From NCBI GenBank assembly GCA_963804955.1, contig CAWDSQ010000007.1:192001-256000 (forward strand): a DNA stretch of 64,000 nucleotides, given 5' to 3'. The DNA is from an uncultured delta proteobacterium (lineage in GTDB: Bacteria; Desulfobacterota; WTBG01; CAIYCZ01; CAIRTM01). The notes under the pieces are model-generated. The model searched no databases and was not told the DNA's origin. It was given only the letters and a program-made list of their open reading frames with translations. The position numbers and the translations under genes were made by a program. Shown piece by piece: positions 1,903 to 61,033 of this stretch (position 1 is the stretch's first letter; every line of letters begins with the position of its first letter).

Positions 1903-2144
1903 GTTTTCTGTCCATAAAAAAACAGGCGGCTTTTCCTTATTCCTTCCGGGTCATACAGCCGGAAGGTGCAAACAATTTTTTGGCACGTTTCACTTTGCCC
2001 AACCTCCTCCCGGCATTTTTTAATAGAAAAATTTAGCGGCAACAGCTATGATATGATAAAAAAAATTTGCTCCTCTTGATTATCTTTTTGACCACTATCA
2101 GGAACTGCGCAAAATATAAAAACATTAAAAACGGAGAATGCCCT

Positions 2145-2417
2145 ATGCCTGAGAAAAAAAACTGCCCGGGAAAGCTGCCCCCTGAAACCCCTGCCGTCAT
2201 CTGCGCCAACTGCGGCGCTGTAGCCCTGAGCCCGAACAGCGTCTGCAAGCCGCAGGGGCATGGCACAAAAAAAGACTGGTGCGGCACCGAATCCATAAAA
2301 AAACCATCTTTCTGCCGCAACAATGTTCATACAAACCGCTATCAATGCGCCACATGTGGAAAGGTTGCTATTGACTGTGAATTGCTCTGCGCGCCCGAAC
2401 CCCTTGTGCGGAACTGA
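2145..2417 (+). CDS. Small Cys-rich putative metal-binding protein with two C-x2-C-G-x9-C-x-P repeats
   Basis: GGAG RBS then MPEKKNCPG...CANCGAVALSPNSVCKP...CATCGKVAIDCELLCAP. Confidence 0.7.
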   Translation: MPEKKNCPGKLPPETPAVICANCGAVALSPNSVCKPQGHGTKKDWCGTESIKKPSFCRNNVHTNRYQCATCGKVAIDCELLCAPEPLVRN

Positions 2418-2499
2418 CGGGCTGAGGCAGAACAAAGTCCGCAGGCTGGGCAAAGCGCAGCGTTCCCAGTAGTATGTGATTTCGATCATAAGGCTGTTG

Positions 2500-2661
2500 G
2501 GCACGTTTCACTTTGCCCAGCTACCCCCTTTATTTTAATAAGTGGCTATCCCCGGTTATTTACGGAAACAGCCTATGGCGGCATGGCAACCTGGTAGTTC
2601 ACGAAGCAGTAAACCGCTCTGTAGCGGAAGGCACAGATACCGGCAGCGCCCCCAGGCAGCT
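2500..2661 (+). repeat. Degenerate copies of 1982-2001 and 1757-1847
   Basis: GGCACGTTTCACTTTGCCCA is identical at 1982-2001 and 2500-2519; 2571-2661 aligns with the lipoprotein 3' end and its downstream sequence. Confidence 0.8.
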
Positions 2662-2684
2662 TAACCAAAGAAGGGTGGCCTCCC

Positions 2685-3401
2685 TTACTCTTTCCAGGAA
2701 TGCTTCTGTTTTTGTTTGCGGACACATTTCACTGCTAAAGAAATACCCATGCACACAAGCAGAGAAGCTGCAATTGCCAGTGCGCCTGTTTTTCCGACAG
2801 CGGCATAAATCTCGCGCCATCGCTCGCCTCCGATCTTTCCGATAAAAGCAAGCAGCATAAAAAGCGCAAGGTTTGCAAGCAGGAACGCCGTATATATCCT
2901 GGATTCCTTCAGGGCAAGGATGCCGCTTGAAACTACGGCGCATAAATATATGCCCGGAACGAACTTTGAAAAGAATAGCGCCACTGCCCCGTATGTTTCA
3001 AGCCAGTGCCTGGTGCGGGTTACCGCATCATCGTTGATATAGCGGGCAAAGAAAGGCTTTTTGAGTATCGGAGCGCCAAAGTACCGCACAATACGGTAAC
3101 AGAGCACGCTGCCGGCGAACATTCCAAGCGTTGGGGCTGCTATTACCAAAACAAGCGAGCTGTGCCCCTGCGAGACCAGGTATCCGCAAAATACGGTGAC
3201 TAGTTCTATCGGGATGATCGGAAAAAAGAAGTTTGCCAGCCCGGCAAGAAACAATAAAATAAAAAACATGAAGGGGGCATCGGCAAATGATACTGCTGCG
3301 TTAAATAACTGGTCCAGGAGACTCTCCCTGTACGGATACGAGTGCGATTGCGTGTCAACAGAAATGGTTTCGGAAAATCTGAGAGCAGAAAGCAAAGGCA
3401 C
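2685..3401 (-). CDS. DedA family membrane protein
   Basis: FFFPIIPIELV...GMFAGSVLCYRIVRYFG...YGAVALFFSKFVPGI pattern, multiple TM helices; start uncertain. Confidence 0.85.
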   Translation of the reverse strand: MPLLSALRFSETISVDTQSHSYPYRESLLDQLFNAAVSFADAPFMFFILLFLAGLANFFFPIIPIELVTVFCGYLVSQGHSSLVLVIAAPTLGMFAGSVLCYRIVRYFGAPILKKPFFARYINDDAVTRTRHWLETYGAVALFFSKFVPGIYLCAVVSSGILALKESRIYTAFLLANLALFMLLAFIGKIGGERWREIYAAVGKTGALAIAASLLVCMGISLAVKCVRKQKQKHSWKE

Positions 3402-3478
3402 ATGGTCTTTATCGTTAAAACAGGTCGCCCTGTTTCTTCCGGCGCATGAATAAAGAATGTCCGATCTTTTTGCTGCTG

Positions 3479-3862
3479 TTAATCAATGAAGACTTCAAAC
3501 TGATCAATAATGCGGCTGCCGGTTTCATGCATGATATACCTCGCAAGAAGAAACAGGCATGACCCGGCAAGAACAAAAACAATATCAGTCAGGGCTGCTT
3601 TTTGTTTTACGATAAGCCCCTGCGCCAGCTCCAGTAAAACTGCACCCGCGACAACTATTGCCACGGTGAGAGCAATGGGGTTGGGCACCTCCAGCAGTTC
3701 ATTGGTCAGGATGAACCCGAGCGTTGATGTCAGGACAAATGAAACTGCCACCAGAGCACCGCGGCTCGTCAGCCAGGTGTTTCTCCTGTTTGACAGGGCA
3801 ACACTAAGGGTTGCCGCCAAAAGTATCAGAAATACAAGGGAGCATAACGCAAGTGCGGTCAT
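3479..3862 (-). CDS. Hypothetical membrane protein, weakly VanZ-like
   Basis: AGGAAGGAG RBS; four hydrophobic segments; LLELAQGL...LTDIVFVLAG resembles the VanZ E-x2-Q...D motif. Confidence 0.55.
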   Translation of the reverse strand: MTALALCSLVFLILLAATLSVALSNRRNTWLTSRGALVAVSFVLTSTLGFILTNELLEVPNPIALTVAIVVAGAVLLELAQGLIVKQKAALTDIVFVLAGSCLFLLARYIMHETGSRIIDQFEVFID

Positions 3863-4060
3863 CGGGCTCCTTCCTGTGCTGCCTGCATCGGCAACAGGCT
3901 TTGATGTATGCCGGACAGAATAGAACAGGCGGCGTTTGCCTGTCAAGACAAAAGCCCGCATCGGTCTCCGGCTCAGAAGTCAGGCGCATCTCGGCAGAAC
4001 ATGCCCGTATTGCGAACCCACGCCGCCGGCTTCATCGCTCGCCCAGGAGCCTGCCACTGT

Positions 4061-4981
4061 TTACTGTATGCCATCCCGGCCTTCAGCCTGACAGCGAGCT
4101 TCTTTGAAAAAATCCTCAAGGTACCGGGCAAAGCTGCCCTGCCGGACGTCAAAAACCGACTTCATGGCGGTAATGTCGCAGGTGCTGCCGCCGGTGAAGG
4201 CAGATAGTATGCCCCGGGCATTGTACCTGTTGCCGGTCGCGAAATCGATGCATGAGGCGGCAAAGCTTGCAAGCGGCAGGGGCACGAAAATGAAACGGAC
4301 TTTTTTGCCCAGCGCCCGGCAGAAGAGCTGCTCGAAGCTGCGGAAATCGTACTCCTCTTCTCCCGCCGCCTCGATGATCCGCCGGGAGGCTTTGGGGTTG
4401 TCGATGGCATCGGCCATGCACCAGGCCAGGTCCTCAAGCAGTATGGGCCTGATCTTCTCATAGGGCTTCATGAGCAGCGGCACGCGGCCCTTCCGAAGCA
4501 GCGTGCGCCCCAGAAGCTCCGACATGTCCGTGGCAAGCGTGGTTACCCTGAACACCGTATAATCTAGGCCGCTGACCTTCAGCAGGTCCTCCACCATTTT
4601 CTTTATCTTCCCGTGCTCGAAATCGCCGAACTTGGCAAGGCCCCAGTAGCTCACGAAAATAAACTTCCTGAGGCCCGCCTCCTTCGACAGGCGTATGAGC
4701 GCAAGGTTGCCCTCATAGTCATTGGCCCAGAGGGTGGCGACGCTCCGCTCCCTGGCGATATTGGTGGCAAAGCTGCTGATAACCGTGTCGATGCCTTCCA
4801 AAGCCTGCTTCACCGACGCCTGATCCCGCAGGTCGCCCCGGACGATCTCCGCGCCCGTCGCCTCAAGGCCGGTCACATCCGAGCTGTTCCGCACCAGGCA
4901 TCTAACCTTTTTTCCCCTTTTTGCGAGCTCGCGCACTGCGGCGCTGCCCAGATGGCCTGTTGCTCCCACATACAGGATCAT
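4061..4981 (-). CDS. NAD(P)-binding atypical SDR (NmrA/Ycf39-like) oxidoreductase
   Basis: MILYVGATGHLGS Rossmann motif, GDLRD, SGLDYTVFR. Confidence 0.9.
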   Translation of the reverse strand: MILYVGATGHLGSAAVRELAKRGKKVRCLVRNSSDVTGLEATGAEIVRGDLRDQASVKQALEGIDTVISSFATNIARERSVATLWANDYEGNLALIRLSKEAGLRKFIFVSYWGLAKFGDFEHGKIKKMVEDLLKVSGLDYTVFRVTTLATDMSELLGRTLLRKGRVPLLMKPYEKIRPILLEDLAWCMADAIDNPKASRRIIEAAGEEEYDFRSFEQLFCRALGKKVRFIFVPLPLASFAASCIDFATGNRYNARGILSAFTGGSTCDITAMKSVFDVRQGSFARYLEDFFKEARCQAEGRDGIQ

Positions 4982-5065
4982 GGCGTTTTCTCCTTATAAA
5001 ATGCTGGATGAAGATACCGGGTTTTATTCCCCAACCCGGCCTGCGGACTCATAAAAATTTAAGAT

Positions 5066-31578: not shown

Positions 31579-32679
31579 ATGAATCGTATTTTTCGCGCTT
31601 TTTCGTTAGCCTTGTCACTGGCACTCCTGGGAAGTTTCGCAATACTATCTTCAGCGCCTCAACAAGCCGCTGCAGCCGGCACCCTTACTGTTGGCATTTA
31701 TGGCGCAACTGAAGCAAGCTATTTAACAGATATCCAGAGCAAACTGAACAGCACCGGGTTTTTTAGCCAGGTGGATATTCACGAGATAGGCGCATACACT
31801 CCGACCTTGGCAGAACTACAAGGTTATCAGGCTGTGCTTGTGTTCTGTGATGACGATTTCCATAACAACACTACAATGGGCGATGTTCTGGCAGATTATG
31901 CAGATGCTGGCGGCGGCGTTGTGGTGGCCACCTTTGCTTTCACATCCGGTTGGGGTGTTGGCGGGCGGATCTTAAGCGGCGGCTATCTGCCTTTTACGTT
32001 TAATGAGCAGAATGAAGGAACACTCCTCACTTTGATCCCGGACCTGCCGGCCCATCCCATTCTGGCAGGCGTCAATTCCTTCGACGGAGGATCTAACAGC
32101 TACCATGATGTCGTAACCCTAACGGCTGGCGCGACCCAGGTGGCTCATTGGAGCAACGACGTTCCGCTGGTTGCCACGAAACAGAAGGCCACCGGGATAA
32201 AAATCGTGGGTTTGAACTTTTTTCCACCCTCCAGCGATGCCAGATCGGACTTCTGGAATGCAACAACAGATGGCGCCCTGCTGATGGGCAACTCGCTGGG
32301 CTGGGCGGCCTGTATTGATAATGACAATGACACCTATGGACAAGGCTGTGCTGCAGGGCCTGACTGCGACGATACGGATGTTTTTTACACCGACATCTGC
32401 CAGGACTGCCAGGTAAAGGTTATTCCCAAAACCTTTGGCAGGCTGATTGGCGGCCAGGAGAAGAGCAGATGGCTGCTCATTATCGGGGAGCGGGGGATGG
32501 ATTTCGGAGATAACGCCACGATCAGATGGGAGTCAAATGCGATAGAGGTTGTTAAGACGCATGTGTTTTTCAAACGGTTCATGTTAATGCAGGCGAAGTT
32601 CAACGGTGAGCCGCTTGAGATGCAGGACTACCGTGTGCTCGTCAACAGCTGCGAAGGCAAGATCACCTGGGCGAGATGA
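31579..32679 (+). CDS. Secreted protein with an acidic Cys-containing putative metal-binding motif
   Basis: GGAGGA RBS, Sec signal ending ...QQAAAA; CIDNDNDTYGQGCAAGPDCDDTD. Confidence 0.75.
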   Translation: MNRIFRAFSLALSLALLGSFAILSSAPQQAAAAGTLTVGIYGATEASYLTDIQSKLNSTGFFSQVDIHEIGAYTPTLAELQGYQAVLVFCDDDFHNNTTMGDVLADYADAGGGVVVATFAFTSGWGVGGRILSGGYLPFTFNEQNEGTLLTLIPDLPAHPILAGVNSFDGGSNSYHDVVTLTAGATQVAHWSNDVPLVATKQKATGIKIVGLNFFPPSSDARSDFWNATTDGALLMGNSLGWAACIDNDNDTYGQGCAAGPDCDDTDVFYTDICQDCQVKVIPKTFGRLIGGQEKSRWLLIIGERGMDFGDNATIRWESNAIEVVKTHVFFKRFMLMQAKFNGEPLEMQDYRVLVNSCEGKITWAR

Positions 32680-32727
32680 TTGCCGACAGCGTTTGCTGAG
32701 GTTTTAATCTGCTGAAACCGAAACAAT

Positions 32728-32770
32728 AAAAAGCCCCGTTCACTTTGTATCCTTTTGAACGGGGCTTTTA
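32728..32770 (+). terminator. Rho-independent terminator
   Basis: AAAAGCCCCGTTCA...TGAACGGGGCTTTT. Confidence 0.7.
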
Positions 32771-33029
32771 ATGCATGGTGGAATAAGAAAGCAGAGGCTA
32801 CCGGTCTATATTATGGTGGTCCAAGTAAATTAAAAGAAGTCCACACTCGCATGTAAACGCCCTGGCCGCAATACGAGACTCAGTTTTTTGCATGTTAGAT
32901 TTGGTAAGCTTGAATTTTTAAGTCTGTCGCCATTTTTCGCATTTTGAATTCGGCGGGTTAGCACCCGTCCTTCTATGAGGACCGTTGTCAAGCCTCGGGT
33001 TAATTTTTTTTGTTTTTTTCTTTCTTTAT

Positions 33030-33275
33030 CTTTTGATACTCATTCCGTTTTGGCCGGTTGGGCTTGTCGTTTTCCGGGAACCTTGCCCGGAACCACCTTC
33101 TATCCGTGCCGGTATTATAACCGTGCATCCACATACTGCGTGCGCCAATTGGCGTCAGTCCAACCAGTTTAAGAAGCCTTCAATCTACAAAGACGGTGCT
33201 TTTAGACCCAGGGCGGGTACGAAGGGCTTCACCAACTGGAATGCCTATCAAATCCTTTTCCTCCTGTTGTATGTC
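33030..33275 (-). ncRNA. Candidate bridge (seek) RNA of the IS110 element
   Basis: On the minus strand it contains GCACCGTC and TGTAGA (target halves) and CAGTAT and ATAGAAGG (donor halves), plus hairpins; boundaries approximate. Confidence 0.65.
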
Positions 33276-33277
33276 CT

Positions 33278-34420
33278 TTATGCCATCTTCAGTATCGCGC
33301 CTTCCGGCACGATGTCGTGATCAACATACTTCCACAGCGCTATGAGCAGTTTTCTGGCCAGCGCCACGATCCCTATTCGCCTCATCCGCTTGTTGCCCCC
33401 TCCAAAGCGCTCATGAAACCACGTGCTTAGCTTACTGCCAGGCTGCCATCTCAGCCATCCCCAGGCTAGCTCTATCAGCAAAGCTCGAATCCGCCGATTG
33501 CCCGCTTTGCTTATCCCTTGCTCAATCTGCATATCCCCGCTGCTGTAGGGCATTGGCGCAAGACCCGCTGCACCTCCCACCTGCTTCACATTCTTGAATT
33601 CCCGCCAGCCAAAAAACTCATAGATCAAATCCCATGAACTGATCGGCCCAATTGCCCGTATCCGGGCAAGCTTGCTTACCTTGCGCATTTGTTCAGGACT
33701 TGCCGCAAGCTGCCGCTTCTTTTCCTCTTGTATCTGCCTCAGCTGCCGGTCCAGCACCCCTATCCGTTCATACTCCCGCTTCATCTCCTGCACGATATGC
33801 TCTGGCAGTTTGCTGCCATCCCAGGCTCGCACTTCCTCAAGCAGCTTCAGGAATTTACTGCCTACCTCTGCATGTATCCCATACAATACAAGTAATGACT
33901 TTATCCGGCTTACATGTGCTCCCCGTTCCTTTAACAGCCGATCCCGCTCTCGGTTGAGTCGCCGTTCATCTTCCTGTTCCTGTGTCGGAACCCGTACCAC
34001 ACTCCAGACTTTCTGCTCTCCTCCCAAGTGCCGTATCAGCATGGTTAACAACTTTAACCCATCTACCCGGTCCGTCTTGGCCCGCCGATGCCGCCGGTTC
34101 ACTTCGATACTGGCCGAGTCCACCACGATATTCTTTATCCCTATGCTCTCCAAATACCGATGTATCCAAAACCCGTCTCGTCCCGATTCATAACAGCTGT
34201 ATATGGCGCAATCTTCATCCAGTCTAAAATGCTTCCGGGCCTTGACCAGCTCTTCCTTAAACTCTTCAAGATCTGCTGATGTTATTGTTCGCTCCCTCCT
34301 GCGTTGCCCGTCCCCAAACGTCAGTTTCCATTTCTTGTTGGACAGTTCAAGGGATATGTACAAAACCTGCTTACCTGTGCTATTCTTTGCCTCGGTTTGG
34401 ATCATTTGATTGTTCGCCAT
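33278..34420 (-). CDS. IS110-family transposase (bridge recombinase)
   Basis: YISLELS, CYESGRDGFWIHR, RAKTDRVD (DEDD-type RuvC); GLAPMPYSSG, GISKAGNRRIR, IVALARKLL. Confidence 0.95.
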   Translation of the reverse strand: MANNQMIQTEAKNSTGKQVLYISLELSNKKWKLTFGDGQRRRERTITSADLEEFKEELVKARKHFRLDEDCAIYSCYESGRDGFWIHRYLESIGIKNIVVDSASIEVNRRHRRAKTDRVDGLKLLTMLIRHLGGEQKVWSVVRVPTQEQEDERRLNRERDRLLKERGAHVSRIKSLLVLYGIHAEVGSKFLKLLEEVRAWDGSKLPEHIVQEMKREYERIGVLDRQLRQIQEEKKRQLAASPEQMRKVSKLARIRAIGPISSWDLIYEFFGWREFKNVKQVGGAAGLAPMPYSSGDMQIEQGISKAGNRRIRALLIELAWGWLRWQPGSKLSTWFHERFGGGNKRMRRIGIVALARKLLIALWKYVDHDIVPEGAILKMA

Positions 34421-34930
34421 GTTTGTCTCCTTTATGCTGAAAGTTATTGACGTGACTTTTTCAGCATATCCGAGACGTGACGCCTGTCAAATGATCCGTT
34501 CCTTCACAGTATCTACAGGCTTTGAGCGGCCAGTTGCCGCATGTTGTGCCTCCCAGCCGCCAGCAATATCTGGCCTCGCACAGAGCTTTAAATGTTGCGT
34601 ACGGGTCGCCTTTCGTCGTGACAAAATGTGATTTAATGTATTTTTCTTGCACGCCTAACTCTTTGAAATAACTAAAAGCCTTGGCTTATCTGTAGCTTTT
34701 CACCTCTAAGGTCGCCCCGATTAAAGCCGGAGTCGTCTCTGCCATATATTCAAGGTCTGCTGAAAAGCAGACCTTTTTTATAGGTTAACCGGTGCCGCAA
34801 CATCTGCCTATGGGCTCGCAACGCACTGTAATAACTTGACCTTGAGGCTAATTTTTAGTATGCTTACAATTATTTTCCAGGTTTTGAATATCTGCATTTA
34901 TGTGCCATACAATCTTATTGGAGGTTTGCC

Positions 34931-36199
34931 ATGGAAGAAATGAAACCCGGACCACTGAGCGGCGTGACCATTCTTGATTTCACCTGGGTGCTTGCAGGTC
35001 CCTTCGCCACCAGAACACTCGCCGACATGGGCGCCTATGTTATCAAGGTGGAGCGCTACAAAGACGGCACCAATGAGCGGCATCTGCCGCTGATCGTTGA
35101 AAATGAAGGTGTCAAGCAAAGCTCCTACAATATCAATTGCAACCGCGGCAAAAAAAGTATCTGTATCAATCTCAAGGATCCCAAGGGCATGGAGCTGATT
35201 CACGAGCTCATCAAAAAATGCGATGTGCTTATGGAAAACTTCGCTCCCGGCGTCATGGACCGCCTGAAGCTGGATTATGACTCAGTAAAGAAGCTCAATC
35301 CCAAAATCATCTACTGCTCGGTTTCCTGCTTCGGCCACTGGGGCCCGTACTCCCATAAGCCAGGCTATGACATGATCGCCCAGGGCGCAAGCGGCTGGAC
35401 CGACCAGAGCGAGATTCCCCAGATCGCGCCCGTCTCCATAGGCGACATGAATGCAGCAGTGCATGCAGCCGTTGCCATCTGCGGCGCTCTGTACTGCCGC
35501 GAAAAGACCGGCATCGGACAGAACATCGATATCTCCATGATGGACTGCCTGTTCTCTTTTCATGAAAACACCCTGCCGTGGTATCTGCTGACCAGCGCCA
35601 TCGGCAAGCCTGTGGAGCCGCCCCGGATCGGCCGCCTGCATCCGGGCTATGCCCCGTACGGAATATACAAATGCAAAAACGGCTATATCGTCATCGCCTC
35701 CCTCACCCAGCCCCGCTGGGAAGGCATCGTGAAGGCCATGGGCGAAAAGTACAGCTGGCTGCTTGATGATCCCCGCGCAGCCACCGTTTCAACACGCTGC
35801 ACACAGGAAAACGCCCCCTTTATTCATGAGGTGGTTGAAGAGTGGACCATGTCATGCGCTTCAGCGGAAGAGGCCGAGCGCATTCTTGAAAAGCACGAGA
35901 CACCCTGCCTGCGCACGCGCACCATCAAGGAGCTTGCCGACAATGATGAGCATGTGAAGGCACGCGAAATGATGGTTGAGATCGAACAGCCGTTTGTCGG
36001 GAAAATGAAAATGTACGGCAGCCCGCTGAAGATGTCCGAAACGCCCTGCTGCGTACGCGGCCATGGCCCCCTGCTGGGCGAGCATACGCGGGAAGTGCTC
36101 GGAGATGTTCTCAAGTACGGCAAGGAGCAGATAGATGCGCTCTATTCAGGCGGAGTTTTGTTTCAGGAGCCTGCCGTGGAAATGCTTGAAAAAAAATAA
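34931..36199 (+). CDS. Class III CoA-transferase (CaiB/BaiF)
   Basis: GPLSGVTILDFTWVLAGPF, NRGKKSICINLK, ENFAPGVM, PGYDMIAQG, IGDMNA. Confidence 0.95.
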   Translation: MEEMKPGPLSGVTILDFTWVLAGPFATRTLADMGAYVIKVERYKDGTNERHLPLIVENEGVKQSSYNINCNRGKKSICINLKDPKGMELIHELIKKCDVLMENFAPGVMDRLKLDYDSVKKLNPKIIYCSVSCFGHWGPYSHKPGYDMIAQGASGWTDQSEIPQIAPVSIGDMNAAVHAAVAICGALYCREKTGIGQNIDISMMDCLFSFHENTLPWYLLTSAIGKPVEPPRIGRLHPGYAPYGIYKCKNGYIVIASLTQPRWEGIVKAMGEKYSWLLDDPRAATVSTRCTQENAPFIHEVVEEWTMSCASAEEAERILEKHETPCLRTRTIKELADNDEHVKAREMMVEIEQPFVGKMKMYGSPLKMSETPCCVRGHGPLLGEHTREVLGDVLKYGKEQIDALYSGGVLFQEPAVEMLEKK

Positions 36200-60613: not shown

Positions 60614-60707
60614 GATGGCAGTCTCCTCCTCTATGGGTTGTGTCAGTTCGTGGCGGTTGTAATCCGTCGTTTTTATTATGTTGTTATCAAAAATTATCTC
60701 AGATGTA

Positions 60708-60999
60708 GATACTATGAAGGAAAGGATCATTTGACAGGCGTCAGTCTCGGGTATGCTTATAAAGTCAGATCAATAACTTTTAGCATAAGGAGACAAACAT
60801 GGCGAACTATCAAATGATCCAAACCGAGGCAAAGGATAGCACAGGTAAGCAGGTTTTGTACATATCCCTTGAACTGTCCAACAAGAAATGGAAACTGACG
60901 TTTGGGGACGGGCAACGCAGGAGGGAGCGAACAATAACATCCGCAGATCTTGCAATGGTTCAGGAAGAGCTGGTCAAGGCGAGGAAGCATTTTAGACTG
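60708..60999 (+). mobile_element. Truncated IS110 copy (left end and first ~67 codons of the transposase)
   Basis: Near-identical to 34513-34225 on the opposite strand; similarity stops at ...AAGCATTTTAGACTG. Confidence 0.92.
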
Positions 61000-61033
61000 T
61001 ATGCCAATCTGCCATTTTTTGCTTGTATGATTC

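Follow-up and report, generated by a model that had tools for sequence, protein, structure and literature searches.

An IS110-family insertion sequence in an uncultured delta proteobacterium whose right end very probably encodes a bridge RNA with readable target and donor guides

RNA-guided insertion sequences of the IS110/IS1111 class were described in 2024 (Siddiquee et al., PMC11187229; Durrant et al., PMC11208160, excerpts), and the locus studied here raises the question of whether the long non-coding stretch behind a recombinase gene is another such guide RNA and, if so, which of its bases face the DNA. The element in question lies in what we call the window, the whole stretch of 64,000 nucleotides that was analysed (positions 192,001 to 256,000 of contig CAWDSQ010000007.1, assembly GCA_963804955.1, from an uncultured delta proteobacterium). 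A preliminary description, made from the letters of the window alone, had seen an IS110 element whose 3' non-coding end carries both target and donor guides. We find that this is very probably correct in its essentials: the locus is a site-specific IS110-family insertion sequence with an IS1111-type layout, and its right end encodes a bridge (or seek) RNA. The limits and core of the element, the fold of its recombinase, the helices of the RNA and the covariation of four RNA strands with DNA could all be established in silico; judged by its sequence, the element appears to be real, intact and RNA-guided, with a bridge RNA that can be read, and to belong to the class already described. Known systems were compared on the basis of PMC11187229 and of excerpts of PMC11208160, PMC11208158, PMC12288879, PMC13626964 and PMC13604230.

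The element occupies positions 32972-34512 of the window on the minus strand (1541 bp), and the genome holds four full copies of it (100, 99, 98 and 98% identity), along with one 5' fragment and unrelated repeats of the left flank. Read in the orientation of the gene, the left flank is ..GT-AG-ATACT.. and the right flank ..CATAGA-AG-G(G/A)CGGGTGC(T/C)AACCCGCC in all four copies, and two uninterrupted sites in the same genome have ..GTAG-GGCGGG.. with a single AG (on the + strand, ..ACCCGCC-CT-AC..). The core dinucleotide common to the four copies is AG on the gene strand, or CT on the + strand; since CT flanks every copy and stands only once in the uninterrupted sites, we take it as the duplicated core, which leaves 32972-34512 as the element proper. 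Insertion is site-specific, and a single core dinucleotide is common to the target and to both ends of the element. The element targets the foot of a GC hairpin (GGCGGGT, a 4-nt loop, ACCCGCC). Of the ten such hairpin sites that a relaxed pattern locates in the 4.26-Mb genome, it occupies four. In a DNA run, one contig tracks the window to 32971 and then continues with ACAGGCT.., as expected of an empty site, although a single contig is only a hint.

32970..32971, no strand: right-end core dinucleotide, CT on the + strand and AG on the gene strand, flanking all four copies and present once in uninterrupted sites
34513..34514, no strand: left-end core dinucleotide, CT on the + strand and AG on the gene strand, flanking all four copies and present once in uninterrupted sites
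32952..32969, no strand: target hairpin adjoining the element, GGCGGGT / TAGC / ACCCGTC, the right target half in gene orientation
33278..34420, minus strand: recombinase (transposase) gene, 380 residues, identified by its open reading frame, Pfam, a family profile, an AlphaFold model and a structure match

This core differs from the one first proposed, a TC duplicated at 32968-32969 and 34512-34513, because the equivalent positions in the other three copies read CC at one end but TC at the opposite end. TC only seems duplicated in the window copy because its flank carries the variant ..CCCGTC, with T at 32968 where the other sites have C (..CCCGCC); the uninterrupted sites are also one base longer than the empty target that had been reconstructed from it.

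The family assignment of the preliminary description holds: profiles and a predicted structure place the recombinase in the IS110 family of RNA-guided DEDD recombinases. Pfam Transposase_20 (PF02371) matches it with an E value of 1.8e-16 and 60.7 bits against a cut-off of 21.3 bits, and DEDD_Tnp_IS110 scores 24.7 bits, under its cut-off of 29 bits. In a profile of 20 family members, the C-terminal half aligns with IS621 and ISCro4 with the Ser-Gly motif in register, and the AlphaFold model (mean predicted local distance difference test, pLDDT, 75.1) matches the full-length IS621 and ISCro4 chains over ~360 columns with E values of 1.6e-11 to 7.2e-10, at 17-19% sequence identity in the structural alignment with IS621. 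The motif G..P....SG is present as GLAPMPYSSG, which aligns with YESGS of IS621. Among the 20 family sequences S294 and G295 are invariant, as are E78, D117 and D120, and E25 is found in at least 90%; the codon of E25 (window 34346-34348) belongs to the motif SLELS in the first predicted strand, and the Pfam domain match stops short of there. In place of Asp, the catalytic set seems to start with Glu, which would make it Glu-Glu-Asp-Asp. The protein family has at least 8000 matches, the closest non-self sequence among the matches listed being 87% identical. Three of the four copies retain the full 380-residue frame; the fourth (L004, on contig C30) has a one-base insertion opposite window 34101 and stops after 151 residues, with its RNA region intact.

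To read the non-coding region behind this gene we turned to its relatives. We collected 80 loci with relatives of 45-58% identity and kept 78 of them (at least 247 nt after the open reading frame; L051 and L052 were dropped). A nucleotide profile made from the 3' region of the window matches 74 of the 78 loci, missing L024, L026, L049 and L060, and in the alignment of the relatives a fixed scaffold is interspersed with short variable strands. For 42 sequences RNAalifold predicted 21 pairs, 15 of which show compensatory changes; on the target-arm alignment alone it gave only 5 pairs, because the inner hairpin is out of register in that alignment. To count helices, we placed a hand-written structure on a MAFFT alignment. 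It comprises 33 pairs in 6 helices, namely the closing long-range helix, the basal stem of the target arm, the foot of the inner hairpin of that arm, the helix closing the donor domain, the linker hairpin and the donor hairpin. Overall it is 85.7% paired, compared to 33.7-44.5% when the partners are slid by 1-3 columns; changes on both sides occur in 23 of the 33 pairs, and none of 500 shuffles attained any of five measures. The closing long-range helix (helix 1) is 90.1% paired, and the basal stem of the target loop (helix 2) is 90.3% paired, with 6 of its 7 pairs changed on both sides. The family-conserved RNA core extends over ~33239-33050, and the parts of the predicted RNA are as follows.

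32972..33277, minus strand: right end, the 306 nt of non-coding sequence after the gene, with homologs at 74 of 78 related loci
33032..33252, minus strand: largest likely extent of the bridge RNA, with a predicted 15-bp outer stem (33252-33238/33046-33032, 87% complementary) around both loops
33221..33230, minus strand: basal stem of the target loop, 5' arm, pairing with 33181-33173 (helix 2)
33173..33181, minus strand: basal stem of the target loop, 3' arm (helix 2)
33195..33209, minus strand: inner hairpin of the target loop, between the two target guides, with GGGU..ACCGU conserved (helix 3, 77% paired)
33143..33154, minus strand: linker hairpin between the loops (helix 5, 92.1% paired, little variation)
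33106..33130, minus strand: inner hairpin of the donor loop (helix 6, 8 pairs, 6 changed on both sides, 95.8% paired)
33074..33090, minus strand: 3' hairpin past the donor loop, seen in relatives but out of register and so not counted
33052..33062, minus strand: 3' strand of the long-range helices, formed with 33236-33231 and with the strand past the target arm (helices 1 and 4), of uncertain register in the window copy

The four copies in the genome differ at 39 sites, none of which falls in the last 293 nt (33264-32972), although the length of this part would lead one to expect ~7. Over the 229 nt of the RNA region the four do not differ at all, and no solo copy of this region is present in the genome. 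As for expression, one 151-nt contig from a metatranscriptome matches 33086-33236 apart from one difference; none of the contigs from that run maps to the gene. Two RNA runs leave most of the element uncovered, which carries no weight either way, and among public runs none has half or more of the element's words.

One could argue that the 3' region acts as DNA, providing subterminal protein-binding sites, a 3' untranslated region or a terminator structure, and that the likeness among relatives is one of DNA repeats. An inverted repeat and a -35 box in the right end do act as DNA, and the one sign of a transcript, an RNA-library contig, could be DNA carry-over. As an explanation of the region as a whole, however, we consider this very unlikely: six helices are kept by compensatory changes, and strand-specific G-U pairs are frequent where the opposite strand would have C-A, which points to an RNA of the gene strand. 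The region moreover contains strands that are complementary to one DNA strand and then to the other across the core, which is the known scheme of an RNA guide, and a terminator-like site was looked for and none was found.

If the region encodes a bridge RNA, its variable strands should be the guides. For each locus the variable strands were taken from the alignment and the flanks and ends from regular-expression pattern searches, and the two were then compared between cognate and non-cognate pairs. Four strands of the window element stand out.

33210..33218, minus strand: target guide 1, ACCCGCCCU, complementary to the gene-strand core AG and to GGCGGGT, the hairpin side of the target
33183..33189, minus strand: target guide 2, UGU (left flank) + AG (core) + AU (handshake), within ..CUUUGU-AG-AU of the window copy
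33133..33138, minus strand: donor guide 1, CAGUAU, complementary to the left-end start ATACTG
33096..33103, minus strand: donor guide 2, AUAGA (right end) + AG (core) + G (handshake), repeating the right end and core

A 9-mer match like that of ACCCGCCCU arose in 14 of 3000 shuffles of the non-coding region. Across the 42 loci for which both the guide and the right flank could be called (37 distinct guides), target guide 1 matches its own right flank with a mean longest run of 6.38, versus 2.91 for non-cognate flanks, and 0 of 2000 permutations attain the cognate mean; runs of at least 7 occur in 18 of 37 cognate pairs and in 9 of 1332 non-cognate ones. For target guide 2, the 6 nt before the core agree with the left flank at 3.57 of 6 positions for cognate and 1.85 for non-cognate pairs (47 loci, 44 distinct; 0/5000 permutations), and the match is strongest by the core, at 0.95, 0.84, 0.61, 0.45 and 0.48 for positions -1 to -5. 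At 44 of 53 loci, the 2 nt past the core in this guide are the same as bases 1-2 of the left end, and in three of these both are AA.

The donor loop behaves in the same manner. Over the 5 bases that open the left end, donor guide 1 agrees at a mean of 4.06 positions (non-cognate 3.46; 53 loci, 0/5000 permutations), and for each of the left ends AAACT, ATGCT, ATCCT and GAACT there are loci with a matching guide. For donor guide 2, both loci whose right end finishes in CATAGGAG (L042 and L044) carry AUAGGAGG in the RNA, and at 42 of 46 loci the base past the core is identical to the one that opens the right flank (0/5000 permutations). Because the bases past the core covary with the partner DNA, each loop extends one or two bases into that DNA.

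Every string quoted in the preliminary description is present where it had been placed, including the hairpin at 33130-33106 between CAGTAT and ATAGAAGG, and three of its four main guides are borne out: the position of TGTAGA (33189-33184) tracks its own flank in relatives, that of CAGTAT (33138-33133) tracks the left ends, and that of ATAGAAGG (33103-33096) tracks the right ends. The check that it had named, covariation of guide positions with insertion sites among homologs, gave a clear signal (0/2000-5000 permutations). Its model of the target, in contrast, is extremely unlikely. This model combined the TC core with GCACCGTC (33199-33192) and TGTAGA as target guides only 2 nt apart, in an unusually compact loop. 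Both strings exist, and TC does stand at both ends in the window copy; but that is the only copy in which it does, as TC fails in the other three and in the uninterrupted sites, and GCACCGTC matches the target only with a one-base deletion. It overlaps the 3' arm of the inner hairpin together with ACCGT, and ACCGT and the arm preceding it are conserved in relatives whose targets are unrelated; the right-flank covariation belongs instead to the strand 33218-33210. GCACCGTC is thus scaffold, the true partner of target guide 2 is ACCCGCCCU across the hairpin 33209-33195, and with a hairpin between its guides the target loop follows the usual internal-loop plan. AGTATC (33040-33035), suggested as an alternative donor match, belongs to the outer stem and not to the conserved donor loop, and its match does not exceed chance.

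The same description had cautioned that guide matches of 6-8 nt could be due to chance, and shuffles agree with this for a single sequence: when the non-coding region was shuffled 3000 times, 6-mers matching the target arose in 1491 cases and 6-mers matching the donor in 1585, and a 7-mer match in 865. Since short matches are at chance level in any one sequence, the support for the guides comes from the comparison with relatives. That all matches are accidental, the 3' region being drifting non-coding DNA of a decaying element, is next to negligible as an explanation, for although 6-7-base matches are expected in a single sequence and copy L004 is frameshifted, none of 2000-5000 permutations reached the cognate matching for four separate strands, the RNA region is identical in four copies whereas the gene varies, and three of the four retain the full 380-residue frame.

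Several observations nonetheless weigh against a right end that encodes a bridge RNA, or against the strength with which we can read it. The right flank of the window copy has one mismatch to target guide 1 (A for G), and the left-flank guide of the window element matches just 2-3 bases plus the core at its four sites. Among the 29 loci with a left end other than ATACT, the guide matches exactly in only 10, and in 2 it is still ATACT. Flanks were called by regular expressions in 42 (right) and 47-53 (left) of the 75 sources in the guide table, and the permutations drop only identical rows, so that related elements count as independent. On the side of the structure, helix 4, which closes the donor domain, is weak with only 63.5% paired, as is one pair of helix 3 that is formed in 18 of 42 sequences; the folding check proposed in the preliminary description, carried out on the single right-end sequence, gave z = -0.84, with 20 of 100 shuffles as good. 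Rfam returned no relevant family for 32500-35000, its isrJ match lying outside the element at chance level (E 0.94). Finally, the 151-nt RNA-library contig is compatible with a stable RNA but is a weak hint, as it could be DNA carry-over and shows neither level nor ends, and we infer transcription, RNA processing, recombinase binding and strand exchange from the family.

Taking these points into account, we still favor the bridge RNA, and suggest the following mechanism. The parts are ordered as a short left end, the recombinase gene and a long right end, and transcription would probably start from a junction promoter and run through the gene, followed by processing to a bridge RNA of ~190-220 nt from the right end with two internal loops. 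In the target loop, ACCCGCCCU would pair with the gene-strand core and the foot of the GC hairpin, and UGUAG with the opposite strand of the other flank and the core; in the donor loop, the partner of CAGUAU would be the first bases of the left end, and that of AUAGAAG the right end and core on the opposite strand. The RNA, bound by the recombinase, may then join the excised circle and the target, with recombination taking place at the CT/AG core and with one or two bases past the core in each loop matching the partner DNA, a handshake in the sense of IS621.

The ends of the element fit this layout. The non-coding region downstream of the gene (306 nt) is longer than that upstream (92 nt), as in IS1111-type elements, and both ends carry subterminal repeats of 9-10 bp, which start 3 bases (left) and 1 base (right) inside the core, a plan that recurs in relatives, as do right ends of the CATAGAAG type.

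34421..34512, minus strand: left end, 92 nt, in which the left subterminal repeat is at 34509-34500 and a promoter-like site at 34490-34463
32973..32981, no strand: right subterminal inverted repeat, CTATGAGGA on the + strand, pairing with 34509-34500
32986..32991, minus strand: TTGACA, -35 half of a putative junction promoter, at a distance from the end that is conserved in relatives

In the window copy the left repeat is CTGTGAAGGA (34509-34500, gene strand), which agrees with CTATGAGGA (32973-32981, + strand) at 8 of 9 positions with one indel; in the other three copies it is CTATGAAGGA, and all 9 of 9 positions pair with the right repeat. When the ends are joined in a circle, TTGACA would come to lie 17 nt from a -10 box TACTGT (TACTAT in the other copies) in the left end, in line with the junction promoters described for the IS110 family (PMC11187229; PMC12288879, excerpts).

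At window 34507 the left end of the window copy departs from the other three, with ATACTG in place of ATACTA. The donor guide CAGUAU gains a pair by this, but the putative -10 box is weakened from TACTAT to TACTGT. A promoter-like site is also seen at 34490-34463 on the minus strand (TTGACA, 16 nt, TATGCT; 10/12); it could drive the gene from an integrated copy, but is only a lead, and as the promoter scan found one left-end site where 2.3 are expected by chance, it gives no evidence of a promoter.

How does the element compare with systems that have been studied? In IS1111-type elements the long non-coding region follows the gene, the inverted repeats are subterminal, and the seekRNA has its top-strand match 5' of its bottom-strand match (PMC11187229); in ISEc11 the seekRNA has a short and a long form. 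Like ISEc11, ISPa11, ISKpn4 and ISPst6, the window element has a short non-coding stretch ahead of the gene and a long one behind it, inverted repeats that are subterminal and within the 7-17 bp of that type, and a -35 box in the right end. The predicted RNA likewise has a strand complementary to the gene (top) strand, 33218-33210, 5' of a gene-sense strand, 33189-33183, and a hairpin-type repeat serves as target; the ISPa11 target also begins with GTAGGGCG (Table 1 of PMC13604230, excerpts). Unlike members of the IS1111 group, whose transposases have 330-350 residues (PMC11187229), the window recombinase has 380, and its first acidic residue is apparently Glu rather than Asp. The layout is of the IS1111 type, and the element may belong to the IS1111 group proper; the closest named relative is ISRel9.

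The comparison with IS621 is of a different kind. In the excerpts of PMC11208160 and PMC11208158 (PDB 8wt6, 8wt9), each loop of the IS621 bridge RNA is arranged as stem, left guide (bottom strand), hairpin and right guide (top strand), with a CT core and with handshake bases adjoining the right guides (PMC11208158). Recombination by IS621 is reported to fall when the handshake bases match the cognate in place of the partner DNA. The RNA of the window element resembles this in its two internal loops, each with stem, guide, hairpin and guide, in its CT core and handshake bases, and in that the guides of each loop pair with the bottom and the top strand respectively. It is unlike IS621 in that the RNA gene lies downstream of the recombinase gene and antisense to the CT strand, and the inverted repeats of ~9-10 bp set the element apart from the IS110 group, which has 2-3 bp (PMC11208160, excerpts). 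When the CT strand is taken as the top strand, both loops show left guide, hairpin, right guide and handshake. This raises the possibility that, in the ISRel9-related branch (380-residue recombinase, apparently Glu-Glu-Asp-Asp), the RNA encoded at the 3' end follows the plan of the IS621 bridge RNA but is read from the other DNA strand, with both handshakes covarying, a proposal for which we find the case evenly balanced. Were it general, the 'reversed order' of IS1111-type seekRNAs would merely reflect the direction of RNA transcription relative to the core, and exchange would begin with the strand antisense to the recombinase gene.

ISRel9, from a Rhizobium plasmid (NZ_CP013592.1), is 38.7% identical over 95% of the protein; a plasmid search for a named close relative gave best matches of ~50% identity, all unnamed. 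ISRel9 itself is ~14-24% identical to other ISfinder members (190 of 345 matrix columns) and is among the deep branches (source data of PMC11187229). Its features were read from positions 700-860 and 2010-2400 of locus L089. Like the window element, it has an AG core, repeats of the form CATGAGGA / TCCTCATG and a TTGAC box at its ends, and by eye its 3' region contains strings matching its right flank, its left flank and core, its left end and its right end, in the same order. Its guides and ends differ in sequence from those of the window element, and a nucleotide profile of the 3' region of the window family gave no match to the ISRel9 locus. In the excerpted supplements of PMC11208160, ISRel9 was found solely in the tree table, with no group or bridge-RNA assignment. 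ISPpu9 of Pseudomonas putida, a member of the IS110 group, has its guide RNA upstream of the gene, together with a downstream small RNA, Ssr9, that is dispensable for transposition (PMC12288879, excerpts); in the window element, unlike in ISPpu9, it is the downstream RNA that carries the guides.

The known mechanism is unchanged by this element, and its value lies elsewhere. For annotation, the guided insertion accounts for the location of all four copies at the foot of the same GC hairpin, and 33250-33050 would be an RNA gene and not spacer. The element represents one well-resolved natural example and, along with its relatives, provides a few dozen natural pairs of guides with targets or donors, from a compact recombinase branch that is distant from the studied IS621, ISCro4 and ISEc11 and in which handshake positions are visible through covariation. 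Such sets of guides and targets can aid the choice and programming of new recombinases.

Some further observations concern the copies and their surroundings. The 5' fragment of the element, 300 bp with the left end and the start of the gene, lies at window 60704-61003 on the minus strand with 93% identity, and ~60 bp from it, at about window 61064, is an unoccupied hairpin site, ..GTAG-GGCGGGCGCC.., beside which the sequence repeats the right flank of copy L004. In copy L002 (on contig C24) the first ~27 bases of the left end are duplicated 36 bp upstream, with a ..TGT-AG of their own, and a further unoccupied hairpin site lies ~100 bp past the right end. The left flank of the window copy, 34519-34594, is 84-88% identical to two other loci (L006 and L008) in which an open frame runs on, and the likeness of the window stops 4 bases before the core; the element and the hairpin therefore sit at a break in a small paralogous gene.

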